A stretch of 57,890 nucleotides of DNA from a virus (taxonomy: Duplodnaviria; Caudoviricetes): IMG/VR virus record IMGVR_UViG_3300020156_000032, positions 1 through 57,890 of that record; one strand, given 5' to 3'. Shown here in pieces: positions 40,549 through 56,412 of this stretch. The notes beneath the pieces were generated by a model that searched no databases, was not told the DNA's origin, and worked only from the letters and a program-made list of their open reading frames with translations. The position numbers and the translations under genes are program-made. Numbering within the stretch: position 1 is the first letter of the stretch; each line of letters starts with the position of its first letter.

Positions 40549-40579
40549 TCTCGTACTTCCATCTCAACTGAAAGACATC

Positions 40580-41347
40580 ATGGCCGAAAAGACAAAGTCG
40601 TCCGTTCTTGCTAAGTTCAAGCGGACTGTTGGAAAGTCCTGGAACAAGTCTCGTAAGACTGAAGCCCAGGCTCGTGGTCAATCTCTCCCCCCTGGTATCC
40701 GTAATGGCGTCGCCAAGCTCTCCAGCTACAAGATCGACGAAACCCAGAACGGTGATCCGTACTTCGCTCTGACTGGGACAGTCGTCGAACCTGAAGATCA
40801 TGAGGGTCGTAAGGCAACTGTCACTCACTTCATCAACGACTCCGAATGGGCTACCGCGGAAGAGTGCTTGGAACGACTCATCTCGGACCTCAAGCTCCTA
40901 GGCGTCGAAGGTCTCGATGAAGCTGACATCGATGACCTCGAAGAACTCATCAAGTCCGCCGTCGATGAGGAAAAGCACTTCTACTTCAACACAGCTGAGT
41001 CTGGGAAAAAGAAGCAGGTGCGTGTCTACATCCAAGGCCCGGCTGAAGATTTCGACAACCAGGACGACAAGAAGTCGAACAAGAAGTCAGACAAGAAGAA
41101 CAATAAGAAGGAAGCTGAGCCAGAACCTGATGAACCCACCGAAGATGATGATGGTGGAGACTGGGAGCCCGCTAAGGGCGAGGTCTACGGCTACACCTAC
41201 AAAGACGGGAAGAAGAAAAAGACCGTCGCTGTAGTCGTGGATAAGGTCCGTAAGAAGGACCAAACGGTTGACATCCACGTCGAAGACGATGAGGACACAA
41301 CCTTCGAGGAAGTCGAGTGGAGTGACCTTGAGACTGCTCCCGAATAG
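40580..41347 (+). CDS. ssDNA-binding protein (DUF669-like) with acidic linker and C-terminal SH3/Tudor-like barrel
   Basis: LPPG...ETQNGDPY...EGRK; follows Sak4-like gene. Confidence 0.65.
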   Translation: MAEKTKSSVLAKFKRTVGKSWNKSRKTEAQARGQSLPPGIRNGVAKLSSYKIDETQNGDPYFALTGTVVEPEDHEGRKATVTHFINDSEWATAEECLERLISDLKLLGVEGLDEADIDDLEELIKSAVDEEKHFYFNTAESGKKKQVRVYIQGPAEDFDNQDDKKSNKKSDKKNNKKEAEPEPDEPTEDDDGGDWEPAKGEVYGYTYKDGKKKKTVAVVVDKVRKKDQTVDIHVEDDEDTTFEEVEWSDLETAPE

Positions 41348-41350
41348 AGC

Positions 41351-41412
41351 AGGATTGCTTTTCCCCAAGCAATCCTCACCCAGGACCTTCCCCGCAGGGT
41401 CCTGGGTTTCTT
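41351..41412 (+). terminator. Tandem hairpins / terminator after SSB gene
   Basis: AGGATTGCTT/AAGCAATCCT and CCCAGGACC/GGTCCTGGG plus TTTCTT. Confidence 0.65.
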
Positions 41413-41498
41413 GGGGCTGATGGTCTGATGGTGACCAGTGGACTAAGTTCGTTACATTCTCCAGTCCACCCGCGAAGGTTCGATTCCTTCCAGCCCCT
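41413..41498 (+). ncRNA. tRNA-like RNA with a 22 nt anticodon loop (no assignable anticodon)
   Basis: Acceptor GGGGCTG/CAGCCCC, D stem GGTC/GACC, anticodon stem GTGGA/TCCAC, T arm GAAGG-TTCGATT-CCTTC; no encoded CCA. Confidence 0.75.
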
Positions 41499-41531
41499 CT
41501 GTTAAAATCCTCTTTTAAGGACCCCCCGCCC

Positions 41532-41876
41532 ATGCTAGTTCTGTCCCGTCATATTGATGAGTCGATCGTGGTTGGTGACAACATTGTCATCACCGTTGTG
41601 GACATCCGAGGTGACAAGGTACGCCTTGGTATCGCTGCTCCCTCCGACATACCCGTTCACCGTCGCGAGGTCTACGACGCCATGCAACGCGAGAACGGTC
41701 ACACCCCCTCGTTGGCAGGACGGCAGATCAAAGCAGCCCATACGCTACGAGCCGGATACCACAGTTGTGGCTATCAACATGGTCCTGACAAGACTTGTGA
41801 ACAGGCCAAACAAGAGTACCATTTGGAAGTCGAAGCCATTCGTCGAGTCAACGACCCCTCTACCCACGGCGATTGA
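41532..41876 (+). CDS. csrA: Carbon storage regulator CsrA/RsmA with C-terminal extension
   Basis: [48 protein letters not shown]. Confidence 0.93.
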
Positions 41877-41903
41877 TTATCTCCCCCAAAGAAAGCTAAG
41901 CCC

Positions 41904-42491
41904 ATGCCCCCAGTGAGTCCTAAACCGACAACGTATAAAGGTGTAAGGTTCAAGTCCCGTCTGGAGGCTCGTTGGGCAATCTTTCTTGATCATTGTCCTG
42001 ATGTCTATTCCTGGAAGTATGAACCACAGACTTTCTACAACAGAGCTACTGGCTGGACTTACACTCCAGACTTCCTAGTAGAATTGATGTTGAATGGTAA
42101 GCGGTACTTATACATCTTGGAAATCAAACCAAATCGTACCTCTGTGGAGTATTTGAACTTTCTCAAATACTTTACTAATCTCATACCGTACCCGTTCTTT
42201 GTTGTGTCTGGTAACTTCTATGACATCAAGTCACAGATAGATGCTGGCTTCAATAGTCCTGGTACTATCCCTAGGCTATTCGGTCTAGGGACTAAAGCAG
42301 CAGAACATATTGCTGCTAATTACCGTTTCGACCTCAGTGAGGAATCAAATGCTTTCCCGCAAACAAGAGTGCCTGGACCTGTTCGGCAAGACAGTCGAAG
42401 GCGTGGACGTTCATTTCGGCAATCAGGTAAAGGGAGTCGTGAAGGGGTACGACCCTTGCGTAAAAAAAGGTCTCGACGCAAGAGGAATTGA
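41904..42491 (+). CDS. PD-(D/E)XK endonuclease
   Basis: YKGVRFKSRLEARWA...YEP...YTPDF...LEIKP. Confidence 0.8.
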   Translation: MPPVSPKPTTYKGVRFKSRLEARWAIFLDHCPDVYSWKYEPQTFYNRATGWTYTPDFLVELMLNGKRYLYILEIKPNRTSVEYLNFLKYFTNLIPYPFFVVSGNFYDIKSQIDAGFNSPGTIPRLFGLGTKAAEHIAANYRFDLSEESNAFPQTRVPGPVRQDSRRRGRSFRQSGKGSREGVRPLRKKRSRRKRN

Positions 42492-42605
42492 TGGTGACTT
42501 CCTACACCTGATCCCCTTCCAAGTCTTCGACCCTGTGTCTAAGACCTATGGTAAGTCTCTTGGTCCCACAGTAACTGCCATCATCTCTATTGAATCTGTG
42601 ACTAC

Positions 42606-44678
42606 ATGCGACGACAAGCCGTATCAACACCTCGCCCCCGCTCAACACGAAACTCCCGTCCAACTCCCCGAAGCGTATCGACTACATCCAAAGTACGGTC
42701 GAAGGTCAACGCCAATTACAATCTCAAGTACAGCAAGCCCCCTGGAATCTTGTGGAGTCTCGACACCGAAACCACAGGAACAGATTTCTATCATGGATGT
42801 AAGCCATTCCTCTATTCTGCCTGCTCCACCGACGGAGACGTCCTCACCTGGGAATGGGACGTAAATCCTCTAACCAGGGAACCCATCATTCCTAATTCGG
42901 AGGAAAAGGAACTGGGAAAGTTCCTCAACTCCAACCACTTTGTCTTACACAACACTAAATTTGATTATCGAGCAGGGGAGTCCATAGGGCTCCCTATCCC
43001 GTCGTGGGAACATACCCAGGACACTCACCTCGCTAGTCATACCCTAGCTTCCGCAGCATCTCACAAACTCAAGGATTTGGCCCTGCAACATCTGGACATC
43101 AATGATGATGACCAAAAGGACCTCCAAGAGGCTGTGAATGCTGCTCGTCGCTTTGGGCGTAAGATGAAGTGGCGTATTGCCTCAGAAGGAGACCCTCACT
43201 TCCCTGCTTGGAAACCTAAACAGAATGAGGGCTGGTGGGTCGCAGACATGTGGCTGCCTAGAGCAGTCGCAAAATACTGTAACTACCCAAAGGATCATCC
43301 TTGGTGGACAGTCTGCCGAAAGTACAACATCCAAGATGTTGAACGTACAATCGGTCTCTGGCTCCTAATGAAAGAGGCTATGGAGGAAGAAGGTTTATAC
43401 CACCTCTATGAACGTCGCCGTCTCCTGTTACCCATCACTTACAAGATGGAATCACGGGGCATGACGTTCTCTTCCCAAAAATTGGAGCCAGTGCAGCAGG
43501 ACTTCCACCAACGCTGTACCAAAGCTAAGCAGACCTGTCTCAAATTGGCAGGTCCTGGACATACCGAGAAGAGCCTCAACAGTCCAGGTCAGCTGCGAAG
43601 TATCCTATTCGATAAGTATAAACTCCCTCCTGGGAAGAAAACCAAAAGCGGTCAAAACTTCTCTACTGATAAAGAAGTCCTAAACGACCTCGTACATAAG
43701 GCTGCTCCAGGTTCAGCAGCCTTACGCTTTTTGGAGAACCTCCTAGATGCTCGTGGCTATGAAACTGCCTTGAGCTATATGGAGTCCTATGAGAAGTTTG
43801 CTTGTCGAGCAAATAAGATACGCTGGTGGGAACTCCATCCTGGGTTCAACATCAGTGGTACAGCGACCACCCGATTCTCATCCAGCAACCCTAATGCCCA
43901 GAACATCAGCAAGAAGGAGAAAGCAAACCTCAGACAGATATTTGGTCCTATGCCTGGTCGTGAATGGTGGGCTATGGATTACTCAAATATCGAGATGCGT
44001 ATCTTCGCATACGAATCAGGTGACAAGCGTCTGATCGAGGCTTTCGAGTCTGGGTTCAGCGTACACTTGATTTTCGCGGAGGTGCTTCATCCCAAAGAAT
44101 ATGCCGAGTGCCTCAAGACAGGAGAGGAGTTCAAAGACAAGTACGAATCCACTCTGTACCAATGGGTCAAGAATGGTAACTTCGCACTCATCTACGGAGC
44201 AGGTGTTAAGAAAGCCAATGCAACCTACCACGTTGACGGTGCCTATGACATCATTCGTAAGAAGCTCCCCCTCATCGATAAGTTTATGCGAGCTAAGGAT
44301 GAGGAAGCTCGTAAGAAGGGATACATTACAACCCTTGGTGGCTATCGTCTCCAAGTCCCAGAGAAGAAACCCCACTGTGCTGTCAACTACTTTGTCCAGG
44401 GTACTGCTGGTTGGTGTATGATCAACGCTATGATCCGAGTAGCGGAGTATCTCCAAACCCTCAAGGATCATCACCTTATCATGACCATCCACGACGAACT
44501 GGATTACGACTTCCCAACCGCCGCAGGAACCAAGAACCTCTCCTACGCTTACCATTGCAAGAAGCTAATGGAGTTATCAGGGAACGACATTGGTATCCCT
44601 ACCCCTGTGGATGTTGAGCGTCATCCTGACAACTGGGCTAAAGGCGAACGTATCAAAGACTGGAGCTTGGCCGCCTAA
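42606..44678 (+). CDS. polA: Family A DNA polymerase with 3'-5' exonuclease domain
   Basis: LDTETTG, HNTKFD, TTRFSSSNPNAQNI, DYSNIEMR, KNGNFALIYG, NYFVQGTA, TIHDEL. Confidence 0.95.
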   Translation: MRRQAVSTPRPRSTRNSRPTPRSVSTTSKVRSKVNANYNLKYSKPPGILWSLDTETTGTDFYHGCKPFLYSACSTDGDVLTWEWDVNPLTREPIIPNSEEKELGKFLNSNHFVLHNTKFDYRAGESIGLPIPSWEHTQDTHLASHTLASAASHKLKDLALQHLDINDDDQKDLQEAVNAARRFGRKMKWRIASEGDPHFPAWKPKQNEGWWVADMWLPRAVAKYCNYPKDHPWWTVCRKYNIQDVERTIGLWLLMKEAMEEEGLYHLYERRRLLLPITYKMESRGMTFSSQKLEPVQQDFHQRCTKAKQTCLKLAGPGHTEKSLNSPGQLRSILFDKYKLPPGKKTKSGQNFSTDKEVLNDLVHKAAPGSAALRFLENLLDARGYETALSYMESYEKFACRANKIRWWELHPGFNISGTATTRFSSSNPNAQNISKKEKANLRQIFGPMPGREWWAMDYSNIEMRIFAYESGDKRLIEAFESGFSVHLIFAEVLHPKEYAECLKTGEEFKDKYESTLYQWVKNGNFALIYGAGVKKANATYHVDGAYDIIRKKLPLIDKFMRAKDEEARKKGYITTLGGYRLQVPEKKPHCAVNYFVQGTAGWCMINAMIRVAEYLQTLKDHHLIMTIHDELDYDFPTAAGTKNLSYAYHCKKLMELSGNDIGIPTPVDVERHPDNWAKGERIKDWSLAA

Positions 44679-44839
44679 ACCCTCCTTGTCAACTATCAGG
44701 AACCGTCTAGTGAGGTCCATTGTACCCCTAGTTAAACCCGTAATAAAAACCTAACTTTTACCATTGGCTTTGAAATCCTTTGGGAAAAGAACATACAAGA
44801 CACCAAACCTAACTACCAACACAGACCTCGTAACAACCA

Positions 44840-46033
44840 ATGCCAATAAAAACCGAAAACCAAACCCAGGACAATCCCCAAACCATTCCCCTGGACAATC
44901 CTACTGCTCGATTCATCTACTGGATGATGGAACGACACCGTATCCATCTCAAACGCCAGGCTGGTTTACCTAAACCCTGGACCACTGACAAGGTTCTCCA
45001 GTCATACTTCTTCACCAACCCTTTCCGAGAGAACGATAAGACAACAGCGTGGTATCGAGAGAACATCCGTATCCCTTACACTACTCCACCCCACTACAAT
45101 CCCTCCCCACCCAACAAGTTTCCCTCTGCTCCCTCCCTCAGTCTGTCTCGTGTCTTGTTCGCTACTATCGCTTTCCGGTGGTTTAACTTTATACCCACCG
45201 GACAACTCCTACTAGGCCGGGCCTTGAGCAACCTGTCATCCTCCCCAAAGGACATCAAGGCTTTTGCCGCCAATCGGAATAACCTATTGTACCACTGGGA
45301 TATGATACGAGCTATCAATCGTCTCACTATCCACCAACAGTACGGTCACAAAATCTTTACAGGAGCCTATATTATCAAGTCTCCTGACCGTCGTAACATC
45401 CCTTTCACCCTAGGATACACAGACGGTCCTGTCGGTGAACAAAGACTCCACTTTCCTGATAATCGAATCGTCCCCAAACGATCATCCAAGGGGGTCTACG
45501 ATAAGATCGAAGCAATCTGTTGGGCCGTCAACAACGTATGGCTCGACTTGACCGCTCTCACCAACTGGTTCACCAACACCCAACGTAGTCTGGAGGAAGC
45601 TCATCAAAAACTCTGTTGCTACCCCTACCTGGGAGACTTCATGGCTTACGAGATTGTGAGTGACTTACGCTTCACTCCTCTCTTGGACCAGGCCCCTGAC
45701 ATCAACACTTGGGCCAATATGGGACCAGGAGCTACTCGTGGTTTACGTCGTCTCCGTGGTCTCCCTGCCGAGGGACCTCTCCCTCGCAACTACAAGGAAC
45801 TGATGCTCCAACTCTGGGACCGAGCCAAACTGGACTTCCGAGTTATGGCTGGTCCTCCTATTCCCTCTGTATCCTCCCCAAAGGAACCTAGGTCCTCTTG
45901 GATCAAGTCCGGCTTATACCCCTACCCCAATATCGAGATGCGAGAGATCGAACATTCTTTGTGCGAGTTCGATAAATACGAACGAGCCCGTCTACAGGAC
46001 GGTCAACTAAAGCGTCTATACCAAGGCACCTAA
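44840..46033 (+). CDS. aGPT-Pplase clade 1-like DNA base hypermodification protein A
   Basis: FIYWMMERH...PKPWT.D.VL..YFFTNPFRENDKTT, FRWFN, GDFMAYEIVSD, GPGA.RGL, REIEHSLCEFDKY. Confidence 0.82.
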   Translation: MPIKTENQTQDNPQTIPLDNPTARFIYWMMERHRIHLKRQAGLPKPWTTDKVLQSYFFTNPFRENDKTTAWYRENIRIPYTTPPHYNPSPPNKFPSAPSLSLSRVLFATIAFRWFNFIPTGQLLLGRALSNLSSSPKDIKAFAANRNNLLYHWDMIRAINRLTIHQQYGHKIFTGAYIIKSPDRRNIPFTLGYTDGPVGEQRLHFPDNRIVPKRSSKGVYDKIEAICWAVNNVWLDLTALTNWFTNTQRSLEEAHQKLCCYPYLGDFMAYEIVSDLRFTPLLDQAPDINTWANMGPGATRGLRRLRGLPAEGPLPRNYKELMLQLWDRAKLDFRVMAGPPIPSVSSPKEPRSSWIKSGLYPYPNIEMREIEHSLCEFDKYERARLQDGQLKRLYQGT

Positions 46034-46084
46034 CTCTCTATCAATCCCCCACTCTCGACCTAACCCCTCAACCCCAGAACTCCT

Positions 46085-47605
46085 ATGCCCCTCCAAATCA
46101 AGACAATCCGTACTGTACTGCCTGGCTCCCCTGGTTGGTATTGGTTCCGCACCTCCACCGATGCTCCTTGGAATCCCATCTTAGTGGAATACACCGATGG
46201 TAAATCCCAAGCTCACCTCGTTGGATGTTTCTACAAAGAGGTCCCTAACTCCAACAACGGAGCTTGTTTCAAGGTCACTGCTCCCATCGAGGAATTTGAG
46301 GGTGAGTGGGGAGATGAGATCACTCCCCCTAAGCAAGCCAAACCTGCCCTACAGATCACTTACGGTTCAAGCACGACCTCCGAACGAGCCCCTCGTACCC
46401 AGTACAATCCTCCTGCTAACCAGTCAATCATCCCTGCTCAGTTCGAGAAGTTCCTCTACTGGATTCAGGAGCGTCACCAAATCTATCTAAACCGAGAGGT
46501 CAACAATTCTCCGAAGCCTTGGACAAAGGACCCGATCTTGCAGAACAACTTCTTCTGCAATCCTTTCCGAGAACTCGATAAGACAACCCAGTGGTTCCGT
46601 AATAAACTCCGGCAACCATTGGCTCCGTACCGCGAGGTACTAATGGCTACGATCATCTTTCGCTGGTTCAATTACATCCCTACCGGCGAGGCTCTACTCC
46701 ATGCTTACGATAGTACAGATGCCGAGACCACTAAGGCTCGTATCAAATCCGCTGTTCGTACTCCTGCTGATCCTTTCCTGGCAGTCGTAGGTCCCCAAGT
46801 CGCAGATATGCGTAAGACTCTGAGCAAGGCTGCTAAGAAGGGTATCGCTAAGGCCGGAGCTATCGCTAAGGGTTCTTCCCCAAAGAAGTCTGCTCAACCC
46901 TCCCAAGCAGAACACCTCCCCTTGGGCCTGTTCACCAACTGGGACACAACTAAAGCGATGAGTATCCTATCGAAGCTCAAGCCTGTATTCACCTCAGCCT
47001 ATGTAGTGTCCTCCGCAGAGGGACTCTCCAAGCTGGATAGCATCGCAGGTTCTATTGGTGAGATGTGGGAAGCTCGTAACTCGATCTATGAAGCCCTCGT
47101 ATCCCACCACACCACGATGGAGAAAGCTCACCAGTTCTTAACCTCCTTCCCTGGTATCGGTAACTTCACCGCTTACGAGTTAGTATGCGATCTCCGCTTC
47201 ACCCATATCGGAGAAAAGTGGTCCGATGTCAACGCTTGGGCCAATGCAGGTCCTGGTGCAATGCGAGGTCTGAACCGTTTGTACGGTCGTCCGATCTCAT
47301 TCGCCAGAGGGACTTATGATTGGGTGTCCGAATTACAGCATGTATACTCGAAGACAACCAATGCCCTCTTGGAACATAACTTCCTCAATGCCCCTCATGG
47401 TGAGGTCCCTTACCACTCCCTCAACTGCGAGGATGCCGCTGCTGCTCCTAACCTGCTGTTCGACCTACCTTTTGAACTACGAGAGATCGAACACTCCCTC
47501 TGTGAGTTCGATAAGTATATGCGATTGTATGAGCCCGTGTCTGCTGACGAGTATCGTCCTGGCGACGTACCAAAGCAGTCTAAGCGTAAGTTCAAAGGTA
47601 CCTAA
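46085..47605 (+). CDS. aGPT-Pplase clade 1-like DNA base hypermodification protein B, extra N-terminal domain
   Basis: Same motifs as 44840 paralog (PKPWTKDPIL..NFFCNPFRELDKTT, REIEHSLCEFDKY); N-terminal PGWYW domain. Confidence 0.82.
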   Translation: MPLQIKTIRTVLPGSPGWYWFRTSTDAPWNPILVEYTDGKSQAHLVGCFYKEVPNSNNGACFKVTAPIEEFEGEWGDEITPPKQAKPALQITYGSSTTSERAPRTQYNPPANQSIIPAQFEKFLYWIQERHQIYLNREVNNSPKPWTKDPILQNNFFCNPFRELDKTTQWFRNKLRQPLAPYREVLMATIIFRWFNYIPTGEALLHAYDSTDAETTKARIKSAVRTPADPFLAVVGPQVADMRKTLSKAAKKGIAKAGAIAKGSSPKKSAQPSQAEHLPLGLFTNWDTTKAMSILSKLKPVFTSAYVVSSAEGLSKLDSIAGSIGEMWEARNSIYEALVSHHTTMEKAHQFLTSFPGIGNFTAYELVCDLRFTHIGEKWSDVNAWANAGPGAMRGLNRLYGRPISFARGTYDWVSELQHVYSKTTNALLEHNFLNAPHGEVPYHSLNCEDAAAAPNLLFDLPFELREIEHSLCEFDKYMRLYEPVSADEYRPGDVPKQSKRKFKGT

Positions 47606-47725
47606 CCACCCTACCCTGTTCACCAACTGGGGCACAACTATTATCTACTCACACCCTCCTAGACCGACCTAAAGGTCCTCACCCAATTACCTTAGAATAC
47701 CCCCACAATTACCTTAAAATACCCC

Positions 47726-48043
47726 ATGAACGGACTCTACTACTACTTTCCCACTACCCCTGTGAAACCTCCCATGCCTTACAACGGACCATACCCTAAC
47801 TCACCCTCGGACCCTTACGGTGGCCTACGCAGCACCATTGCTACCTCTGCATTCAGTCTCAGTGTCAGCCTAATAGCGGTTACGCTACTGCTAGCTCTGA
47901 TAACTATGGAACTACACGATCTCAACAACACCCTCAAGAACTTGTGGACCCAAACCCTGCACGTTCAGACCTCTAACCCTCAACCGGAGGCTCCCCTTGC
48001 ACCGTCTCGTACCCCCTCCCTTACACCGTCTCGTATCCCCTAG
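47726..48043 (+). CDS. Small membrane protein
   Basis: Single hydrophobic segment LSVSLIAVTLLLALI. Confidence 0.5.
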   Translation: MNGLYYYFPTTPVKPPMPYNGPYPNSPSDPYGGLRSTIATSAFSLSVSLIAVTLLLALITMELHDLNNTLKNLWTQTLHVQTSNPQPEAPLAPSRTPSLTPSRIP

Positions 48044-48056
48044 TGGAGTGGCCTAT

Positions 48057-48440
48057 ATGGTCCCTCGTGATTACCGCGTGGAGGTTGTAAACCCTGTGGA
48101 CATCCCTATTGACATCCCACCCCCTATCCTTCCTGACCCTCCGTCGGGACCTCATCTCTCCCAAAGAGCCCCGGTGACGGTGGCTCCTGATGGGAAGATA
48201 ACAATCCAGGTCCCACCTGTTGATACTCCTAAGCTGGAGATCATTGACACCCCTATCCTCAAGTACCTCCATAAATTGTTGGTTGAGGATGAACGGCCAG
48301 TAGTTAAGGTCAGTACTCTGACTGGTATAAACTACTCTAACCTATTGGGCTTCTATCATGGTCATAAGGATATTGGTCTGGCAAGTACCTTACGCCTGAT
48401 GAAGCTCTACAATATCCACTTTTGCCAGATCAACGACTAA
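48057..48440 (+). CDS. Protein with C-terminal XRE-like helix-turn-helix
   Basis: GGAG SD; PVVKVSTLTGINYSNL..FYHG..DI.LAST.RL. Confidence 0.6.
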   Translation: MVPRDYRVEVVNPVDIPIDIPPPILPDPPSGPHLSQRAPVTVAPDGKITIQVPPVDTPKLEIIDTPILKYLHKLLVEDERPVVKVSTLTGINYSNLLGFYHGHKDIGLASTLRLMKLYNIHFCQIND

Positions 48441-48478
48441 CTGTTCGACCCTTTACCACACACCCCGAAAAGAACCTC

Positions 48479-49633
48479 ATGTATTGCTACGCTATACTGC
48501 TCCATATCAAAGACCTCGGTACTCGTTATCTGGCTAGTACCGCTACTGTCTCTTCCCTCCAGGACCTCGACTATAGTGATCGATTATCTTCTGCTAAGCT
48601 GATCGAACGTACTGACATTGCCTTCAGTTGGGCTAATGTAATCGACAAGACCCATAAGGGTCATGTCAAGGCCGAAGTCATGCCAGTGAGCATCCATGTC
48701 GGTCATCACCCTGATATGATTGGAGACGTTATGAAGTTCGCTGCGACCTTCGGTCATCCAATGTCTCAGTTCCCTCACCTCCCACCCCCTGCTACGATCT
48801 ACCTTCGTAACAATCTCAACTATGAGGAGTTCTTTGAACTCCTATTAGGTATCGTGAAGGCAATCAACGCTTATAAGCGTATGCAGACCCTCCAAGGATA
48901 CCTCCATTCTATAGAACGTGTGGGTCAGATCGAGCAACTCCCTAAAGCTGTACCCCAAGACCTCCCCAAGTCTATCCCTGATGCCTCTACACTAGCTGCC
49001 GACCTCAAAGTAGCTGAGATGGAGTACAGAGCAGCTTTGGCTGAGATCGTAGACAGTATCGGAGATCTCATCTATGTTCTCATCGGTCAGGCCCTGGCTT
49101 ATGGCCTCCCACTCATCCAGGTGTGGGATGCTATCCAGGAGGCGAATATGGCGAAGCTCTGGTCTACTGATCAAATCGCTACTCTCCCTGATGGTTGGTA
49201 TGCTGAAGTCAGTACCACCAACCCTAATAAATACCTGGTCCACAATGAGGCAGGTAAGGTCCAGAAGCCTACCACTTGGACTCCACCCAACATCATTAAG
49301 ATCATCAATACGATGATCGACACCTGCCCCTATAAAATTGGTGGTGGACCTGATTCCGTCTCCGAGGAAGCAATCGCTATTTCCCTCAAATTCAAGACAC
49401 TTAGGGAGTTTTACCAATGGCGTCTGGACTGCGGCGACACAAGCATCACAGCAGCACAGGTCTTGGAAGCAAGCGACCAACCCCTCGTCCCAGACCAACC
49501 CAACCCAAATCCCAACCCCAGTCCCAACTCAAACCTCAACCCAGCCCCAAGCCAAAGCCCCAACCAACCACAACCCCAAGACCAAGGGTACAGTCCTCAA
49601 CCCGGTCAGTACAGCAATCCTCGAAGCGGTTGA
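48479..49633 (+). CDS. MazG-like NTP pyrophosphohydrolase (putative dUTPase/dTTPase)
   Basis: EEFFEL...EIVDSIGDLIYV..G...VWDAIQEANMAK...GKVQKP. Confidence 0.8.
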   Translation: MYCYAILLHIKDLGTRYLASTATVSSLQDLDYSDRLSSAKLIERTDIAFSWANVIDKTHKGHVKAEVMPVSIHVGHHPDMIGDVMKFAATFGHPMSQFPHLPPPATIYLRNNLNYEEFFELLLGIVKAINAYKRMQTLQGYLHSIERVGQIEQLPKAVPQDLPKSIPDASTLAADLKVAEMEYRAALAEIVDSIGDLIYVLIGQALAYGLPLIQVWDAIQEANMAKLWSTDQIATLPDGWYAEVSTTNPNKYLVHNEAGKVQKPTTWTPPNIIKIINTMIDTCPYKIGGGPDSVSEEAIAISLKFKTLREFYQWRLDCGDTSITAAQVLEASDQPLVPDQPNPNPNPSPNSNLNPAPSQSPNQPQPQDQGYSPQPGQYSNPRSG

Positions 49634-49887
49634 AACTATACGTCTTGATAAGACCTCGTAAGGATGGTGAGGGTATCATTGCTAAGGTCCTCACAGCTAA
49701 GACCTCTACCATTGTACCTACCGTGGTCAAGGGATACGTTAAACCAGGGGACCCTACTAAGTGGTTCCCCGAGATCAGGGAGCTATTCCGTAATAAAATC
49801 CGGGTATCTCCTCACGACCATGTTTTGAACGTATCCATCCTTAGTTCCGAGGCTGCTATCCCACCCGACACCGTGATCGTATATTGA
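49630..49887 (+). CDS. Small hypothetical protein
   Basis: TTG start overlapping upstream stop (TTGA). Confidence 0.5.
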   Translation: MKLYVLIRPRKDGEGIIAKVLTAKTSTIVPTVVKGYVKPGDPTKWFPEIRELFRNKIRVSPHDHVLNVSILSSEAAIPPDTVIVY

Positions 49888-49970
49888 TTCTCTGTCGCCT
49901 GATGAGTTTCAGGTGTATCTCACCTGCTGCTCCTTGCTAACAACCTACCCTTGATTTACATAGGGTATCT

Positions 49971-50031
49971 GAGGGGTCCAGGATGGAGGAAATTCGCAGT
50001 TCCTCCTTAGTCCTTGACACCTGGACCCCTC
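49971..50031 (+). promoter_or_regulatory. Structured GGA element, copy 1
   Basis: 12 bp outer stem, AT, GGAGGAA/TTCCTCC hairpin, TGACA. Confidence 0.6.
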
Positions 50032-50139
50032 TTGGTTTCTTACAACACCTAGTTACTCAACACCTAGTTACTCTGGAACAACACCTAACCCTCTGACCTC
50101 ACCCTGGAACCACAACCCACACCCCCTGGAACATAACCT

Positions 50140-51468
50140 ATGCACCTCACTTACCGCAACGTCAACGATGCTTTCCGCACTGTTATGCAGGAGATGGATT
50201 GGGGTACTATCCGCTCCGTCATTACTGAGACTCGCAATGGACCTTGTCGCACCATCCGCGGACCTGTCATCTTGGAGTACACTTCTCCCAAAGAACGTGT
50301 ACTATGGAACGAAGCTAGGGATGCTAATCCTTTCTTCCATGTCATCGAGGCTCTGTGGATGCTCGCAGGTCGTAATGACGTAGAGACTCTCGATTGGTTC
50401 AACTCCAATATGAAGTCTTACTCAGACGATGGTAAGACATTCCATGCTGCTTATGGTCATCGTTGGTACAACCTAGCCACTCCCCATTGTAATCCCCAAT
50501 TCTGTGGTCCCCCATTTGATCAATGTGGCTACATCCAAGCCGATTGTGACCAACCCCTCAACCAACTCCGAGATGTAGTCCAACTACTCAGTGATCAACC
50601 TAACACCCGTAGGTGTGTCCTGTCTATGTGGGACCCTTTGGACCTCCACAAAGTGGTCACTGACCCTACTTGTAAGGATGTAGCTTGTAACACCCATATC
50701 TACTTCGAGTTAGAACCTCATCGTGTCTGGCGGGAAGGTCAGTACCACGGTCTGCCTATCCGTCACACTGATAAGGAGTTCACAGAGTACAAGCTCAACA
50801 TGACGGTATGCAACCGTAGTAATGATGTCTTGTGGGGAGCCCTTGGGGCTAACTACGTTCATATGTCGTTCCTACAGGAGTACATTGCCGCTTGTGTAGA
50901 CTACCACTTACCTGATGGATCAGTCCAGGTCGGAACCTACTACCAGTTTACTAACAACCTCCACCTCTACAAGGATAAGCAGGACACTGTAAGTTGGCTC
51001 AAGGATTCAACTCCTGACTACTACAAACAACCAGGGTACACCCCTTTACCCTTGGTGCTGAATGCGATAACCTTCACGGAGGAGGTCCAGCTTGCTATGG
51101 ACGTTATCGCCAGCTTCAAGTCAGGAACGAGGTCCAAACCCACTTCAGGACTGTTTCAGGAGCCTTTCTTGGAGAGTGTGTTCCTGCCTATGCTCCATGC
51201 TTGGACTTTCCACAAGCATCGCAACTATCCTATGGCTTTGTATCATGCCAGTTTGATCCGTAGTCCTGATTGGGCTCGTGCTTGTAAGCAATGGTTGGCT
51301 CGCCGCGAGGCTAACTACTTGATGACACGCAAGACCCGACCTATCGATCCTCCTACTTCCCCCAAAGAGGTCCAAGCCAACACCCAAGCTAATGAACCGT
51401 CTCCTACAGTTCATAGCAACCCTACTCCCCGACAAGATGATCACCCCGTACCACGAGACGAAGGATGA
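50140..51468 (+). CDS. Thymidylate synthase-fold enzyme, probable dUMP hydroxymethylase
   Basis: NPFFHVIEALWML.GRND, YSDDG, AYG.RW, TRR.VLSMWDP, KDVACN, NRSND..WGA.GAN (Asn near the dUMP-specificity position), NLHLY. Confidence 0.85.
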   Translation: MHLTYRNVNDAFRTVMQEMDWGTIRSVITETRNGPCRTIRGPVILEYTSPKERVLWNEARDANPFFHVIEALWMLAGRNDVETLDWFNSNMKSYSDDGKTFHAAYGHRWYNLATPHCNPQFCGPPFDQCGYIQADCDQPLNQLRDVVQLLSDQPNTRRCVLSMWDPLDLHKVVTDPTCKDVACNTHIYFELEPHRVWREGQYHGLPIRHTDKEFTEYKLNMTVCNRSNDVLWGALGANYVHMSFLQEYIAACVDYHLPDGSVQVGTYYQFTNNLHLYKDKQDTVSWLKDSTPDYYKQPGYTPLPLVLNAITFTEEVQLAMDVIASFKSGTRSKPTSGLFQEPFLESVFLPMLHAWTFHKHRNYPMALYHASLIRSPDWARACKQWLARREANYLMTRKTRPIDPPTSPKEVQANTQANEPSPTVHSNPTPRQDDHPVPRDEG

Positions 51469-52712
51469 TATCGGACCGCTACCCCAAAACCAATCCTCCT
51501 ACAGTCCTCAAGTTGAAGTCTGTATACAACCCTGACCTCCACCTCCTTACCCACTACGAAGTAGAGAACATTACTATGGAATACCGCGATAAACTCCTGA
51601 ATGACGCAGCTAGTATCTGCCAGGAACTCACCCCTATCATACGCACTACAGTTTGCACCCCGTACATCAGCCACAACTGGCCAATATCTATCCAGCCTAG
51701 TCTAACTAAGGGTGTAAACATCATCCGTGACCTCCTCACCGCGGTTATGACCCAGGAACGTGAGATTAAGGAATTGAAGGAGACTAATAGTAAGCTCGAA
51801 CACGAAAAATCCCAACTACAGGCTGAGACTGATCGTCTTAAAGCGGGACGATTTACCAAAGACGAACTACACAACATCTGTCACAACCTCAAAGCAACTG
51901 TTCCTGTAGAGGAATTTGCTCAAGGCTGCATCAATGAAATGCAAAAGCTCTATGGAGAATGTCCTTTGGAACTTCCCAAACCTCAACCAACATCCATAGT
52001 TCCCCTCCCCCCTGGCACCCAACTACAGTCTACCTTGGACCCTCAGTTCCAGGAGGTCGTGAACTTGGGTAATGCTGATGCTCAGCACCTCCAACAGAAG
52101 GACTATTCCTACGGGTCCTCTTGGCGTAAGCGAGGAGGGGTCGGAGCCTTTATGATGTTGGCTCGTAAATGGGACCGCCTTGAGAAGATGTGCGAGGCTC
52201 ACAACTACGACATCTTCAAACCTATCAGCAAAGAGCTTAAAACTCTCCAAGTTCACGATATAGCTGAGGTGGGACATAAGATAACCCCTTCTACTCACCC
52301 CAACCCGCTCTATGCTGAGACCGACGATAACACCGTATTAGCCCAGGTCCGTGACCTCCGCCGCTACTTGTTCTTGGTGGAGAGTTGGTTGATCCTCCAG
52401 GCCAAGTCTATCAACCACCAGAACAATGGACTACAAGGCCATACCATCCCACTGTGGGTTACTGACCTTGAAGCTAGTGAGAGCTATACACCGACTCCTA
52501 TCGCAACCACCCAACAGATAGAAGCTATGGTCAAAGATCGTATGGACCCCTCCTTTGACGACCCCTACGAGGCCCACCTCAAACCCTCGCAGGACCATAC
52601 TTCCCCCAAAGAACACAACCCAGCCGAGGAGACTCAGGAACGGCTAGCAACATCTAAGAAGAAGAAACCACCACAGATCGATAAAGTCGACCTCTTCCCC
52701 CATAGTCACTAA
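51465..52712 (+). CDS. Multidomain protein with Nmad1/DUF1599-like nucleotide-modification-associated domain
   Basis: KDYSYGSSWRKRGGVGAFMMLARKWDRLE...DLRRYL.LVE. Confidence 0.7.
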   Translation: MISDRYPKTNPPTVLKLKSVYNPDLHLLTHYEVENITMEYRDKLLNDAASICQELTPIIRTTVCTPYISHNWPISIQPSLTKGVNIIRDLLTAVMTQEREIKELKETNSKLEHEKSQLQAETDRLKAGRFTKDELHNICHNLKATVPVEEFAQGCINEMQKLYGECPLELPKPQPTSIVPLPPGTQLQSTLDPQFQEVVNLGNADAQHLQQKDYSYGSSWRKRGGVGAFMMLARKWDRLEKMCEAHNYDIFKPISKELKTLQVHDIAEVGHKITPSTHPNPLYAETDDNTVLAQVRDLRRYLFLVESWLILQAKSINHQNNGLQGHTIPLWVTDLEASESYTPTPIATTQQIEAMVKDRMDPSFDDPYEAHLKPSQDHTSPKEHNPAEETQERLATSKKKKPPQIDKVDLFPHSH

Positions 52713-52767
52713 CCCTAATAAACTCCTAGTATCGTTACCTAGGAATACACCCTCTTTCGGATACCTT

Positions 52768-55143
52768 ATGAAATTGTCTGAATGTCCAGAGAAAATTAAA
52801 CCTTTCGTGTTCCACGGTCTACACCTGGAACCAATGGAGAAAGGTGAGGTCAAGGAAGTTCGTGGCGATTGCCCCTTCTGTGATAAAAGCAATCACTTCT
52901 TTGTCAAGGCCGAGACTGGTCAATGGCAATGTAAGCGTTGCAGTAACAGCGGCAATATCTATAGCTTCCTCCAGATGCTGTTGAATGAGAGCCTACCTTT
53001 GACCACTGACGACGACTATGAGTCCTTATCAGAGGATCGTCATGTCCCAGTATGGGTTCTCAAGGAATTTAGGGTCTGTCGTTCTATGCTCAATGGAGAG
53101 TGGTTACTCCCCACCTTCAATGAGAAGAACGCTATCTCTAACCTCTACAAATACACCGAACTCACTGACCCTGAGAGCGGTGAGACCATCACCAAACTCC
53201 TCAGTACCCCAACCTGCAAGATTGGTCTGTTCGGTACTCCCCTCCTCACTGATAAGCAGAAGCAACTCTGTATCTGTGAGGGACCGTGGGATGGTATGGC
53301 CTTGTATGGTGTGCTAGGGACTCTCAAGAAGAAGGGAGACCGTTACGTCACCTGCAAGAACGGTACACCTGGAGTCCTGCTAGAGGCACACGGAGTATTG
53401 TGTGTCCCTGGTGCTGGTACATTCCAGGAGTCTTGGCTCAACTATTTCCCTGGTCGTAACGTGGACCTCCTATTCGACAACGACCACCCACTCAAGAAAC
53501 CCGACGGTGGTATACGTCTGGTCAAGGGTCAGTGCGTTCGTCCTGGCTGGGATGGAATGACTCGTGTCGTAGCTATGGTCAACCAGACCGGGAAGCGACC
53601 TCGTCGCCTCCGCGTGTTGGCATGGGGTCAACCACCAGACGATGTTGAGCAATCCGGGGGCTACGATGGTGTATCCTCCCCAAAGAACCTGGCAGGGTAC
53701 GGTCACAATAACGACCTCCCACACGGCTATGATATTCGTGACTTGATCAAGGATAAAGGTCCTCGTGAGGTAGTGAGCTTCCTCAAGTCGGCCCCTACCA
53801 AGATCGAAATGGAGAAGCCGAGTTCTGATAGCCATACGGATATTCCCACCGTGGAGCCTATCGAACGAACTACCTTTGAGGACCTCTGTAAGGATTACGC
53901 AAGTGTACTCCACTTTAGTCCTCAATTACGAGACACCTTGTGTGTCATGTTGTCAGTCATTACTAGCACTGACCTGCTAGGAGATCAATTGTGGCTCAAG
54001 GTGATTGGTCCACCTGGGTCCGGCAAGACAACACTCGCAGAAGCCGTGTCAGTAGCTCGTGAATACTGTATGCCTAAGAGTGTTCTCACTGGGTTCCATT
54101 CAGGATACCTGGAACAGGATGGTCGGAGAGCCTCGAAGGACAACAGCTTGATTCCTGACATGAAGGGTAAGACCGTCATCGTCAAAGACGCGGACACTTT
54201 GATCCAGGCCCCTAATCGGGATAAGATCATGTCCGAGTTACGCGACATATATGACGGGACCTCTCGTTCTCATTATCGTACTGGTAAACAGAACGACTAT
54301 AGTGACATTCGTACTACATTCATCTTGTGTGGTACGGACGAGCTTCGCATGTTGAATCGTTCGTTCCTCGGTGAACGCTTCCTCGACTGTGAGATCATGA
54401 CTAAGGATCAGGACACTACGCCCTATCTACAGCGGGCTATGTCCAACACCTACAGTAAGATCACACAGGGGATGTTGGCTAACACTCCTGACAACGACGA
54501 TAACGAGGTCCGCGAGGATTCGTCCGAGGGGCTGTTCCTCCAGCAAGTTACTTATGGATTCTTGAAACACCTCAAGGAGTCATTACCTCAGTTACGTCCT
54601 CCTATCCTCCCCAAAGAAGTGGAGGGCACACTCGGTGCCTTGGCTACGTTCCTAGCATACATGAGGGCTCGTGTTCGTCGTGATGGATACGACCTCGCAT
54701 ATCGTCCTAGGGCTGAGCTTCCTACTCGTATTGCGAGTCAGTTAGTGAAGCTGGCTGTATGTATTGCTATCGTCTTGGGTAAGGAGACTATTGACGATGA
54801 GGTCCTACGCATTGTTCGTGATCGTGTACTAGACACATCAGTTGGATTCCAACTGGATGTTGCTAAGGCACTCATCGACAAAGAGGAAGGTTTGAGTGTT
54901 CGCCAGATTTGTGTGGCTGTCAATCTCCCTGAGACAAATGTACGTCGTTTGTTAAACGATTTACAGGAGTTCAATATCGTGGAGCGTTACCAAAAGTCAA
55001 ACAAGTCTGGTCAACGTGGTCGTGATATGCACCTATGGGTTCTCACTGAGGGACTAAGCGAAATCTATAAAGCTGCGTTCCTTGATCAGAAGCCTGTGCA
55101 GAAGTCAAAGCCAAAGCCTAAACCCAAGGCTCGTAAGAAATAA
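52768..55143 (+). CDS. Primase-helicase: Zn finger, TOPRIM, MCM-like AAA+, C-terminal winged helix
   Basis: CPFC..CKRC; ICEGPWD, LFDND; GPPGSGKT, VKDAD, ERFL, PTRIASQL. Confidence 0.85.
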   Translation: MKLSECPEKIKPFVFHGLHLEPMEKGEVKEVRGDCPFCDKSNHFFVKAETGQWQCKRCSNSGNIYSFLQMLLNESLPLTTDDDYESLSEDRHVPVWVLKEFRVCRSMLNGEWLLPTFNEKNAISNLYKYTELTDPESGETITKLLSTPTCKIGLFGTPLLTDKQKQLCICEGPWDGMALYGVLGTLKKKGDRYVTCKNGTPGVLLEAHGVLCVPGAGTFQESWLNYFPGRNVDLLFDNDHPLKKPDGGIRLVKGQCVRPGWDGMTRVVAMVNQTGKRPRRLRVLAWGQPPDDVEQSGGYDGVSSPKNLAGYGHNNDLPHGYDIRDLIKDKGPREVVSFLKSAPTKIEMEKPSSDSHTDIPTVEPIERTTFEDLCKDYASVLHFSPQLRDTLCVMLSVITSTDLLGDQLWLKVIGPPGSGKTTLAEAVSVAREYCMPKSVLTGFHSGYLEQDGRRASKDNSLIPDMKGKTVIVKDADTLIQAPNRDKIMSELRDIYDGTSRSHYRTGKQNDYSDIRTTFILCGTDELRMLNRSFLGERFLDCEIMTKDQDTTPYLQRAMSNTYSKITQGMLANTPDNDDNEVREDSSEGLFLQQVTYGFLKHLKESLPQLRPPILPKEVEGTLGALATFLAYMRARVRRDGYDLAYRPRAELPTRIASQLVKLAVCIAIVLGKETIDDEVLRIVRDRVLDTSVGFQLDVAKALIDKEEGLSVRQICVAVNLPETNVRRLLNDLQEFNIVERYQKSNKSGQRGRDMHLWVLTEGLSEIYKAAFLDQKPVQKSKPKPKPKARKK

Positions 55144-55205
55144 GGGGTGATGGATGGAGGGAATGCTCAGCCCCTCCCGGCGTCGAGTGACACCATCACC
55201 CCTTA
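55141..55205 (+). promoter_or_regulatory. Structured GGA element, copy 2
   Basis: 13 bp outer stem, AT, GGAGGG/CCCTCC hairpin, TGACA. Confidence 0.6.
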
Positions 55206-55211
55206 CAAGAT

Positions 55212-55352
55212 AAGGGGTGGAACTAGACTGTGACCTCATTGTTGTCCTACCTGCAAACCCTCGTGTTGTTCCCACGAGGGGTAGTGATGACCTCAACTAC
55301 CTTCTCGGGTTAATAGTAGTTGTTGTGAGATCATGTTCCACCCCTTTCTTTT
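55212..55352 (+). ncRNA. Multibranched structured RNA candidate with U-tract
   Basis: 55212-55223/55335-55346 stem; inner 55258-55265/55273-55280 and 55294-55300/55316-55322. Confidence 0.5.
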
Positions 55353-55390
55353 GTTCCGTAATAAAAACCTAAATCCTTAACTCACCATAG

Positions 55391-55458
55391 GCGGTATTGT
55401 CTGGTGACAAAGCGGGTCTTATATACCTGCCAGCCTGGTTCGATTCCAGGATACCGTA
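55391..55458 (+). tRNA. Non-canonical tRNA-Ile(UAU)-like gene with reduced D arm
   Basis: Acceptor GCGGTAT/ATACCGT, discriminator A, anticodon arm GCGGGT-CTTATAT-ACCTGC (TAT at 55420-55422), T arm CCTGG-TTCGATT-CCAGG; followed by CTA, not CCA. Confidence 0.7.
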
Positions 55459-55493
55459 CTACTACTACTCCCCTCCTTCCCTGGTTAATGTTG

Positions 55494-55871
55494 ATGTCAA
55501 CCCTTATACTTACTCGCCGTGTCGGTGAATCACTCGACTTCTATATTCCTCACGACCATATTGTTGATCTCTTGGTTAAGCTGTTGGATGGGCAGACACC
55601 TGAAGAGGCATTAGGCACAGTAGGTGACGTTGACCTTCAGGTACGAGTTACCTTTGCTAAGCAACCCCAAGCAGGTCGAGCCACCCTACATATAGAGGCA
55701 CCACGTTGTATCCAAATACAACGTAGTGAGATCAACAATATACACCTTGCTAAGAATCCTCCCCCTGCTAATGTACCTAAGAGTTCTGATGGTAGTGTAC
55801 ATCAAGACTTCATACCTTTGTCTAAACAAACCAGACCTCAATACGCTCGTCCCCCTAAGCGTCGTAAGTGA
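55494..55871 (+). CDS. Divergent CsrA-like protein with internal insertion
   Basis: LILTRRVGESL...VRVT...GRATLHIEAPRCIQIQRSEI; start ATG 55488 or 55494. Confidence 0.7.
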   Translation: MSTLILTRRVGESLDFYIPHDHIVDLLVKLLDGQTPEEALGTVGDVDLQVRVTFAKQPQAGRATLHIEAPRCIQIQRSEINNIHLAKNPPPANVPKSSDGSVHQDFIPLSKQTRPQYARPPKRRK

Positions 55872-56161
55872 GTCCTACACGATAACTCTCCCTGCCAAGT
55901 CCTACACCTTTCCTGGGAGCCCCATGAGGAGTCCTGCAAGAGAATTCTACCCAGGAGTCCTGCAAGGGAGTTCTGCAAAGGAGTCCTACAGGAGAGTTCT
56001 GATAAAGACCTCATATCGCCGAGTCCTACACCGGAGTTCTGCAAGAGACCTCAACCTTACCGAGTCCTGCAAAAGCACTCGTACTGGAGTCCTGCAAGGG
56101 AGTTCTGCAATGGAGTTCTGAAAGGGTGAGTCCTGCAAGAGTTCTGCAAGAGAGTTCTGCA
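55870..56161 (+). repeat. Iteron array GAGTYCTRCA (~17 copies, local 13 bp period), putative origin
   Basis: Copies at 55870, 55897, 55929, 55942, 55955, 55968, 55981, 55994, 56021, 56034, 56062, 56087, 56100, 56113, 56128, 56139, 56152. Confidence 0.85.
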
Positions 56162-56199
56162 CGAGATGTCTATAAGGGCTCGGTTAATAGTCGCCCCGT

Positions 56200-56412
56200 A
56201 CTCTTACTAAACTCTTATTAAAGTCTTACTAAACTCTTTTTAACCTCTTAAATAACTCTTAAAATACTCTTTAAGACCTCTTAAAGACCTCCTAAATAAC
56301 TCTTTAAGACCTCTTACCGACTTCCGTACTAAGTAGTCGTAAGTTAGCCCCTAGTTAGCCCCTAGTTAGACCCTAGTTAGCCCCTAACCGTTGGCTAGTT
56401 AGCCCCTAGTTA
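56200..56412 (+). repeat. AT-rich CTCTTA(A) repeats followed by ~5 GTTAGCCCCTA repeats
   Basis: Visible tandem repeats next to the iteron array. Confidence 0.7.

Follow-up and report, generated by a model that had tools for sequence, protein, structure and literature searches.

A tailed-phage contig of 57,890 nucleotides (nt), a linear IMG/VR virus record with an estimated completeness of 75%, contains two tRNA-like elements, here called W1 and W2, and both directly precede the only two CsrA-family open reading frames (ORFs) among its 55 listed genes. We call this whole stretch the window, and the two coding sequences csrA#1 and ORF #2. CsrA is a master post-transcriptional regulator, and its phage copies are thought to reprogram the host. 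From comparison with other viral csrA loci, we are highly confident that the pairing of a tRNA or tRNA-like element with a downstream csrA is non-random and recurrent. This architecture, apparently undescribed so far, is real and recurrent; the mechanism that we put forward for it is a proposal.

Two tRNA-like cloverleafs and the genes behind them

The cloverleaf, with a 7-base-pair (bp) acceptor stem and a T loop of the form GTTCRANYC, is present in both elements according to the minimum free energy (MFE) fold and to ARAGORN. The distances given in the original prediction were confirmed, W1 ending 33 nt before the ATG at 41532 and W2 29 nt before the ATG at 55488. Neither element reaches the gathering cut-off of the Rfam tRNA family (RF00005, 29 bits). 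Tried at relaxed settings, as had been proposed, tRNA finding recovered the two: ARAGORN calls W2 by default and misses W1, which it calls as tRNA-Gly(tcc) with a 15-nt insert once introns are allowed. The coordinates of all features are collected in the table.

In W1, an acceptor stem of 7 Watson-Crick pairs, a D arm and a T arm of canonical form (GAAGG-TTCGATT-CCTTC) go together with an anticodon stem that closes a loop of 20-22 nt instead of 7 nt. Given this loop, we take the decoding function of W1 to be lost. Its MFE structure is the cloverleaf (-35.0 kcal/mol, z -3.25; none of 200 shuffled sequences folds as well), and its 7/7 acceptor stem was matched in 1.5% of shuffles. W1 scores 24.8 bits with RF00005, having 20 nt where the model has 5, and 36.6 bits with R1, a covariance model of csrA-adjacent elements that has W1 in its training set. 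The insert of about 13-15 nt is unstructured in the fold, shows no bulge-helix-bulge motif and falls short of the length of a group I ribozyme, so W1 does not have the make-up of an intron-containing tRNA. Neither a tRNA-splicing endonuclease (tRNA_int_endo) nor an RtcB ligase was found among the proteins of the window, which is 75% complete.

A 7-nt anticodon loop with U33 on a 5-bp stem is lacking in W1 and is a feature of W2 alone, whose anticodon arm has a 6-bp stem and the 7-nt loop CUUAUAU. W2 further has a G.U pair at 1:72 and a canonical T arm; its D stem of 3 bp closes a 4-nt loop. Its best Rfam score, 25.8 bits with the tRNA-Sec model (cut-off 47), leaves it below all cut-offs, while R1, again with the element in its training set, gives 46.2 bits. 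The MFE structure is again the cloverleaf (-26.3 kcal/mol, z -3.12), and 2 of 200 shuffles were as good.

As had been noted originally, a CCA end is encoded in neither W1 nor W2. The motifs that they were said to share fared differently. The T-arm motif GGTTCGATTCC has exactly two occurrences in the window, one per element, where 0.03 would be expected; TGGTGAC of the D arm occurs 10 times against 9.95 expected and is thus not significant alone. A covariance-model search of the window returned no third tRNA-like element at an expectation value (E) of 1 or less, W1 and W2 being training members of the model, in agreement with the inspection by eye.

A terminator-like structure had been described upstream of both elements. 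This is correct for W1, where a perfect hairpin pair is followed by UUCUU: the segment 41345-41412 folds with -34.8 kcal/mol (z -6.48), and none of 200 shuffles was equally stable. A consensus terminator scan did not flag the second hairpin (41378-41407), whose 10-nt outer loop exceeds the limit of the scan. The description does not hold for W2, which has a single modest 8-bp hairpin about 110 nt away and no U-run. Among 19 elements, including those from other loci described below, a strong hairpin with a T-run lies, by our reading, directly upstream in four (W1, L025, L128 and L139), and the mean MFE was -23.1 kcal/mol against -19.5 kcal/mol for the background. A directly upstream terminator was consequently rejected as a general feature of the elements. 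No promoter-like site was found in 41000-42000 or between W2 and ORF #2.

Table. Coordinates of the two cassettes in the window
Feature	Position	Strand	Description
Hairpin pair with U-rich tail	41351..41412	+	Two perfect hairpins (41351-41376, 41378-41407), then UUCUU (41408-41412); terminator-like; abuts W1
W1, tRNA-like cloverleaf	41413..41498	+	Acceptor stem 41413-41419/41491-41497; T arm 41474-41490; discriminator 41498
Leader of csrA#1	41499..41531	+	33 nt; Shine-Dalgarno-like AAGGA (GGA at 41519); too short for a promoter
csrA#1	41532..41876	+	114 amino acids; CsrA domain at residues 1-52; C-terminal extension of about 60 amino acids
W2, compact cloverleaf, tRNA-Ile(UAU)	55391..55458	+	Default ARAGORN call
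Leader of ORF #2	55459..55487	+	29 nt; pyrimidine-rich
ORF #2, CsrA-like	55488..55871	+	127 amino acids; first strand LILTRRVGESL, helical insert of about 27 amino acids, then CsrA-like strands and helix

Both downstream genes had been taken for CsrA homologs. For csrA#1 the evidence is straightforward: its CsrA domain matches Pfam PF02599 with 83.5 bits (cut-off 27), and the protein matches PHROG 9500, a CsrA-like regulator, with an E of 3e-20. R44, the arginine of the VHR-E motif, and residues of the first strand are invariant in an alignment of 28 CsrA proteins. Judged by these matches, csrA#1 is an unambiguous CsrA. The tail of about 60 amino acids encoded by 41694-41876 holds Cys and His residues, and the CsrA of another locus (L029:3001-3288) has a Cys-rich tail; both tails may be added metal- or partner-binding modules.

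ORF #2 remains below the Pfam cut-off (24.3 bits against 27), and an hhalign comparison with 28 viral CsrAs gave a probability of 11% (E 0.0028). Its first strand and C-terminal half nevertheless align with CsrA in the correct order around the insert. A word-index search for relatives returned only the protein itself. Searching 1.84 billion representatives with phmmer returned itself, an Ig-repeat protein and a tandem-repeat protein, and the two non-self matches were judged spurious, their scores being summed over repeats. In the ESM Atlas, the top two structure rows for its own model of ORF #2 are CsrA clusters (template modelling (TM) scores by row 0.73 and 0.77); the three best matches of the feature search are also CsrA clusters, at 0.80-0.83 and all below the bar of 0.9. 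An AlphaFold model (mean predicted local distance difference test score 69) shows two helices in the insert, and Foldseek with this model placed RsmN/RsmF in the top two positions with probabilities of 0.99 and 0.95 and weak E values of 0.07 and 0.13. The AlphaFold model is not independent evidence because it was built on the CsrA alignment; the ESM Atlas model is independent of that alignment and counts as a separate line. With moderate confidence, we regard ORF #2 as a divergent orphan protein of the CsrA family. Other viral CsrA proteins depart from the simple form too: L034:3001-3489 and L038:3001-3426 encode proteins with tandem CsrA domains, of which the second has an insert after the first strand, and a single CsrA in L043 has an insert of about 40 amino acids at the same place as that of ORF #2.

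Recurrence upstream of csrA in other phages

Our main sample consisted of 43 viral csrA loci (245 kilobases (kb)), retrieved by peptide words of csrA#1 such as VVDIRGDK and not chosen for tRNAs. A T-arm scan of these loci gave 32 matches. In eleven cases the match is on the csrA strand, with its end 34-137 nt ahead of the start codon (one, in L033, is a weak motif); the same zone of the opposite strand has none. When the CsrA proteins were clustered at 85% identity, 8 of the resulting 36 viral clusters had a same-strand tRNA or tRNA-like element within 150 nt upstream: two canonical tRNA-Met, one of the insert type and five with a T arm only. The spacer is 19-65 nt in most clusters, the two pattern scans described below having gaps fixed by design. 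The possibility, raised with the original prediction, that related phage csrA genes lack upstream cloverleafs did not materialise, since elements recur 5' of csrA in unrelated viral contigs.

As a control we used 80 chromosomal csrA loci (235 kb), mostly from Planctomycetota. They gave no ARAGORN call with or without introns, no csrA-strand T-arm match within 750 nt upstream and no covariance-model match at an E of 1 or less, whereas the same model gave 20 matches on 39 viral csrA loci. A different structure was seen in seven chromosomal csrA loci of the Isosphaeraceae type (L088, L095, L096, L107, L113, L116 and L123): a conserved GC-rich hairpin, TGYCGGCCGAKCCGRCG, which is not tRNA-like and lies on the minus strand at a similar position across loci, about 240-365 nt upstream of csrA.

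Further cases came from scans with a pattern in which a T loop is followed, after a gap, by a degenerate csrA start. Among viral contigs a true CsrA ORF stood behind 11 of 14 matches with a 30-60-nt gap and 9 of 14 with a 61-91-nt gap; in metagenome contigs the same was true of 47 of the 80 matches fetched, out of at least 118 stretches. The scans thus add 20 viral and at least 47 metagenomic cases of the pairing. Ten proteins were sampled from four of the longer metagenome contigs, and 7 of them match PHROG phage families (L213 2/4, L201 3/3, L158 2/2, L173 0/1). As judged from these samples, the pairing is common, not universal.

The upstream elements form a graded series that runs from canonical tRNAs through tRNAs carrying inserts in the anticodon arm, and elements in which that arm is shortened or replaced, to a minihelix. 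The canonical class comprises elements above the Rfam cut-off or called by ARAGORN at default. In it, tRNA-Leu(UAA) accounts for 17 of the 47 fetched metagenome cases, at 20-37 nt from csrA, and a tRNA(CAU) lies 5' of csrA in 8 viral loci; Val, Phe, Cys, Asn and Arg tRNAs occur as single cases. As many relatives have canonical tRNAs at the same place, the label "aberrant" given to the cloverleafs of the window does not define the pairing. A mismatched 1:72 pair and A11:U24 are hallmarks of bacterial initiator tRNA. Read from the alignment, seven of the eight CAU tRNAs have the mismatched 1:72 pair and six of those seven also A11:U24. Six viral contigs (L135, L140, L141, L150, L151 and L153) carry such an initiator-type tRNA(CAU) directly 5' of csrA; a phage initiator tRNA right before a repressor of translation initiation is a curious recurrent combination.

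In the insert class (examples are W1, L042/L044, L126, L128, L130 and L133), 11-190 nt are inserted in or beside the anticodon loop. The element of L042/L044 still scores 48 bits with the Rfam tRNA model despite a 14-nt insert. The tRNA-like element of L128 (L128:3730-3866, identical in sequence to metagenome locus L203) sits 48 nt before csrA and has one tRNA nested within another: its 9-bp extended anticodon stem encloses a second T arm and what look like the two halves, 3' and 5', of a further tRNA. Examples of elements whose anticodon arm is shortened or replaced are that of L131, which has the 5-nt loop AUGGA, and those of about 60 nt in L036/L037. The minihelix class is a family of 14-15 members in which a 45-nt acceptor/T-arm structure with a 12-nt linker starts 9 nt after the upstream stop codon. 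No encoded CCA was seen among the inspected elements.

The minihelix surpasses the coding sequences that flank it in conservation. Of its 47 columns 5 vary, as against 20 of the 38 leader columns and 19 of the 45 that cover the first csrA codons; at the end of the upstream ORF 70 of 93 columns vary, one divergent member inflating this figure. Closing stems with perfect 7/7 Watson-Crick pairing occur in 10 of 19 non-canonical representatives, as compared with 1.5-7.5% of shuffling trials per element, and L036 and L037 differ by a compensatory pair in this stem. The check for covariation that the original prediction had called for was positive: RNAalifold returned the cloverleaf for 17 csrA-adjacent elements, with compensatory changes in 18 of its 20 pairs.

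A proposed processing signal and its alternatives

We propose that the cassettes are tRNA-first transcription units, in which the tRNA shape is kept as a processing and expression signal for RNase P and RNase Z that yields a csrA messenger RNA (mRNA) with a short leader. From what the sequences offer, we consider the case for and against this proposal evenly balanced. Each cassette would be one transcription unit, with the tRNA-derived cloverleaf directly 5' of the CsrA-family ORF. Host RNase P would cut at the 5' end of the cloverleaf and, since no CCA is encoded, host RNase Z would cut after the discriminator. The cloverleaf would thereby be set free, and the csrA mRNA, now separate from the message upstream, would have a defined leader of 29-33 nt. 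In tRNA it is the acceptor/T-arm half that RNase P, RNase Z and the CCA-adding enzyme recognise, and we propose that the tRNA shape is kept because host tRNA-processing enzymes recognise this half. The suggestion made originally, that the cloverleafs are processing or stability elements, appears to fit the comparative anatomy, with an acceptor/T-arm half that is kept, an anticodon arm that is variable and no room for a promoter.

We infer co-transcription of element and csrA from their geometry. Cleavage by RNase P and RNase Z, and any effects on the stability, timing and autoregulation of the csrA mRNA, would follow by analogy from what is known of these enzymes. Processing might serve to separate csrA from the message upstream or to have it expressed from a strong tRNA promoter; it might also place a defined 5' end beside a ribosome-binding site with GGA, at which CsrA could regulate its own synthesis. 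For the Leu(UAA) family, two loci were scanned, and in both a 10/12 match to the sigma-70 consensus lies upstream of the tRNA, ending 0-11 nt from it; TATAAT-like hexamers lie upstream in most members viewed. As the sigma-70 match lies just upstream of it, this tRNA looks like the first element of the csrA transcript. The tRNA-first, or tRNA-punctuated, reading is suggested by this match together with a spacer too short for a promoter.

It is tempting to go further and to propose that phages have repeatedly turned tRNA genes into a dedicated cis-module of csrA, reduced at the extreme to the 45-nt minihelix. The module would be an RNase P/RNase Z processing switch, possibly modulated by CsrA binding to a GGA-containing Shine-Dalgarno site 10-20 nt downstream, and would set timing, stability and autoregulation. 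It would then be a phage counterpart of the organellar t-elements discussed below, tied to one protein family and in some lineages also to a phage initiator tRNA. We offer this wider proposal tentatively, as possible though rather doubtful.

Several observations weigh against a tRNA-first processing signal. The hairpin pair with its U-rich tail 5' of W1 could stop transcription, and in that case W1 and csrA#1 would be left without a recognisable promoter. The leader of ORF #2 has no Shine-Dalgarno sequence and no GGA motif. In L213 the -10 hexamer abuts the predicted 5' end of the tRNA, which is awkward for a normal start site. Canonical tRNAs in this position could be there merely for their own expression, and tRNA or tRNA-like genes also lie directly downstream of csrA in two loci, which fits a looser picture of tRNA islets: a tRNA-Ile(tat) overlaps the csrA stop codon (L004:3225-3295), and a 75-nt tRNA-like element starts 8 nt after the csrA stop (L014:3281-3356), csrA being flanked there by tRNA or tRNA-like genes on both sides.

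Other points on the same side concern sampling. The 43 loci cover one CsrA subtype because they were fetched via peptide words. The element accompanies about one fifth of the sampled viral csrA genes, and the isolates Bacillus phage Dartukuta, Vibrio phage 1.232.O and Pseudomonas phage phi297 have no annotated tRNA directly 5' of csrA (Dartukuta has a tRNA-Arg about 750 nt downstream of it), a fourth record being unannotated; the element is thus not required for phage csrA function. A control with the reverse-complement T loop gave one match, itself a true csrA, against four in the forward direction, numbers that are too small. In a tree of 32 CsrA proteins the 8 positive tips need 7 changes, and the ten of 300 shuffles that were inspected need 6-8. 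Because the CsrA alignment is short, this poorly resolved tree neither shows nor excludes repeated gain of the pairing. Peptide-word scans of viral contigs with the DNA polymerase of the window and with ORF #2 found no close relatives of the phage, and W1 and W2 likewise have none. A search for sequencing runs matching 40500-43500 gave a single run, on record as DNA and possibly the source sample, and no RNA run.

Some of these observations would also suit an incidental neighbourhood, in which tRNA genes, their decaying copies and small "moron" genes such as csrA share accessory regions, W1 is a tRNA pseudogene and the pairing is functionless. In its favour are the widely differing identities of the upstream tRNA (Leu, Met, Val, Phe, Cys, Asn, Arg, Ile) and the presence, in several loci, of two or more tRNA or tRNA-like elements, some of them not adjoining csrA; to these can be added the downstream elements of L004 and L014 and the scatter of the trait on the short CsrA tree. 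We nevertheless consider this explanation unlikely. It would leave unaccounted for the tight spacing, the perfect closing stems kept in non-canonical elements and the position of both window elements before the two CsrA-family ORFs. What argues against it most strongly is the conservation of the minihelix above the level of flanking coding DNA, unexpected under neutral decay, together with the strand- and distance-specific enrichment, about one third of T-arm matches falling in about 1% of the searched space and always on the csrA strand. The cloverleafs could instead be working tRNAs, W2 serving as a tRNA-Ile(UAU) for ATA codons and the insert of W1 being removed or tolerated, with csrA merely sharing their promoter. 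ARAGORN reads W2 as tRNA-Ile(tat) with a normal 7-nt loop, a tRNA-Ile(tat) abuts csrA in L004, and many relatives in this position carry canonical tRNAs above the Rfam cut-off. Moreover, ATA accounts for 5 of the 9 Ile codons of ORF #2 against 77 of 768 (about 10%) over the 55 listed genes, a share (binomial p about 9e-4) that is the second highest among these genes. Decoding is hard to reconcile with the long anticodon loop of W1 and its lack of a bulge-helix-bulge, with the lack of a splicing endonuclease or RtcB in the window at its completeness of 75%, with Rfam scores of W1 and W2 below the tRNA cut-offs and, among the relatives, with the 45-nt minihelix and the 5-nt "anticodon" loop of L131, which cannot decode; we hold it to be quite unlikely. 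Within the processing proposal that we favour, however, W2 may also still act as tRNA-Ile(UAU) and aid translation of the ATA-rich ORF #2, a dual role suggested by the contrast between the ATA share of this gene and that of the phage as a whole.

A role in trans has also been considered, the elements being either decoys or sponges that titrate phage or host CsrA, as one part of the original prediction had it, or tRNA mimics that absorb tRNA-targeting defence nucleases of the host, co-expressed with csrA. The phage clearly invests in CsrA-type proteins, and in some relatives a GGA is found in the hairpin loop that replaces the anticodon arm (AUGGA in L131, a loop with AGGA in L036/L037). The decoy idea was not upheld for the window: W1 has one GGA, inside a stem, and W2 one, at the junction of T stem and acceptor stem, in place of the multiple loop-exposed motifs of known sponges, and no Rfam sponge family matches over either element. 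As, in addition, the conserved part is the acceptor/T-arm half and not the GGA-bearing loop, action in trans seems very unlikely to us. Least of all can we see attachment sites in the elements, which would make them copies of the ends of host tRNA genes that serve in integration. Integration into tRNA genes is common; W1 and W2, for their part, are complete cloverleafs with their own 5' halves and not 3' fragments, both lie inside the replication gene module, and no tyrosine or serine recombinase (PF00589, PF00239) was detectable in the window, at its completeness of 75%. This possibility is extremely remote. The proposal that we retain for the elements is thus that of a processing signal at the head of the csrA transcript, with the reservations given above.

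Genomic setting and relation to known systems

The left part of the window codes for the large terminase, the portal, a fusion of head protease and major capsid protein and the tape measure protein. A plus-strand replication module follows from about 36 kb, with an exonuclease, a Sak4-like annealing protein, DNA polymerase, thymidylate synthase and primase/helicase, and W1 and W2 are both located within it. The closest cellular relatives of csrA#1 come almost entirely from genomes or metagenome-assembled genomes of Planctomycetota (59-84% identity over the CsrA domain in the top rows), so the host is probably a planctomycete.

Directly 3' of ORF #2, about 1.2 kb of ORF-poor DNA (55872-57037) contains several families of short tandem repeats: about 18 copies of the 13-nt unit GGAGTYCTGCAAG at 55,880-56,165, followed by the 11-nt units ACTCTTAMTAA, AGTTAGCCCCT and CCCTGCCCTT. 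The 13-nt repeats bear GGA and were considered as a structured CsrA sponge; as RNA the block folds no better than shuffles (z +0.15), so this was rejected and they are read as DNA repeats. From its place beside the primase/helicase gene, the block probably represents a replication origin of the iteron type, or else another protein-binding DNA array. At 30136-30261 on the plus strand there is a weak Rfam match to PrrB/RsmZ, with 25 bits where the cut-off is 44 (E 0.087). It overlaps the start of an ORF on the minus strand, and six GGA motifs lie in 30100-30300; this match is probably due to chance. No other ORF of the phage has so high a share of ATA among its Ile codons as the plus-strand ORF 36771-37232 (4/7, just above ORF #2), which may be another gene that depends on AUA decoding.

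If the proposal is true, a conserved and recurrent tRNA-shaped leader would offer a concrete and easily testable control of csrA, namely cutting by RNase P and RNase Z, and phage mRNAs would join those of organelles in the use of tRNA-like punctuation. An explanation would also be at hand for a class of "aberrant tRNAs" and T-arm minihelices in viral metagenomes, which are missed or mislabelled by tRNA finders. Our results further flag little-studied phages of the Planctomycetota type as carriers of two different CsrA-family genes.

csrA homologs have been listed in 30 of 2517 phage genomes (Sobrero and Valverde 2020, PMC7366521), and the available text of this survey of phages and plasmids differs from our account in describing no pairing with an upstream tRNA or tRNA-like element. 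Our literature search found no paper on such a pairing in phages; the supplementary tables of PMC7366521, which hold the phage csrA list and may bear on the isolates, fell outside that search. For ORF #2 the nearest structural parallel is RsmN/RsmF of Pseudomonas aeruginosa (PDB 4krw and 4k59), a CsrA-family protein of rearranged topology with a helix inside the strand order, with TM scores by target of 0.61 and 0.58 for these two top Foldseek matches and the weak E values given above. It differs in that the insert of ORF #2 follows strand 1 and ORF #2 has no detectable sequence relatives. The CsrB/RsmZ sponges are RNA partners of CsrA proteins; they differ from W1 and W2 in having many GGA motifs in hairpin loops.

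Mixed tRNA-mRNA operons are closer to the cassettes. In metY-nusA-infB and thrU-tyrU-glyT-thrT-tufB of E. coli, the tRNA is promoter-proximal and is excised by tRNA-processing nucleases. The likeness lies in a promoter-proximal tRNA whose transcript runs into genes for translation-related factors and, in several related viral contigs, in an upstream tRNA of the initiator type, as with metY. In the phages, by contrast, csrA lies downstream, the spacer is about 20-65 nt, and many members, including W1, cannot decode and keep only a processing-competent shape.

Mitochondrial transcripts are described by the tRNA-punctuation model, and in organelles structures known as t-elements play a comparable part. 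To our knowledge, nothing comparable to t-elements has been described for phage mRNAs or for csrA. In plant mitochondria, t-elements are tRNA-like structures, not tRNAs, that flank mRNAs, and tRNA-processing enzymes make the 5' and 3' ends of these mRNAs (Forner et al. 2007, PMC1920247). They are the closest match to W1 and to the minihelix cases. In both cassettes of the window a same-strand tRNA-like structure abuts the mRNA at 33 and 29 nt with no room for a promoter, and the acceptor/T-arm half is selectively retained among the elements, as seen in the closing stems and in the minihelix columns. The difference is that t-elements are organellar, and that cleavage upstream of phage csrA is a proposal.

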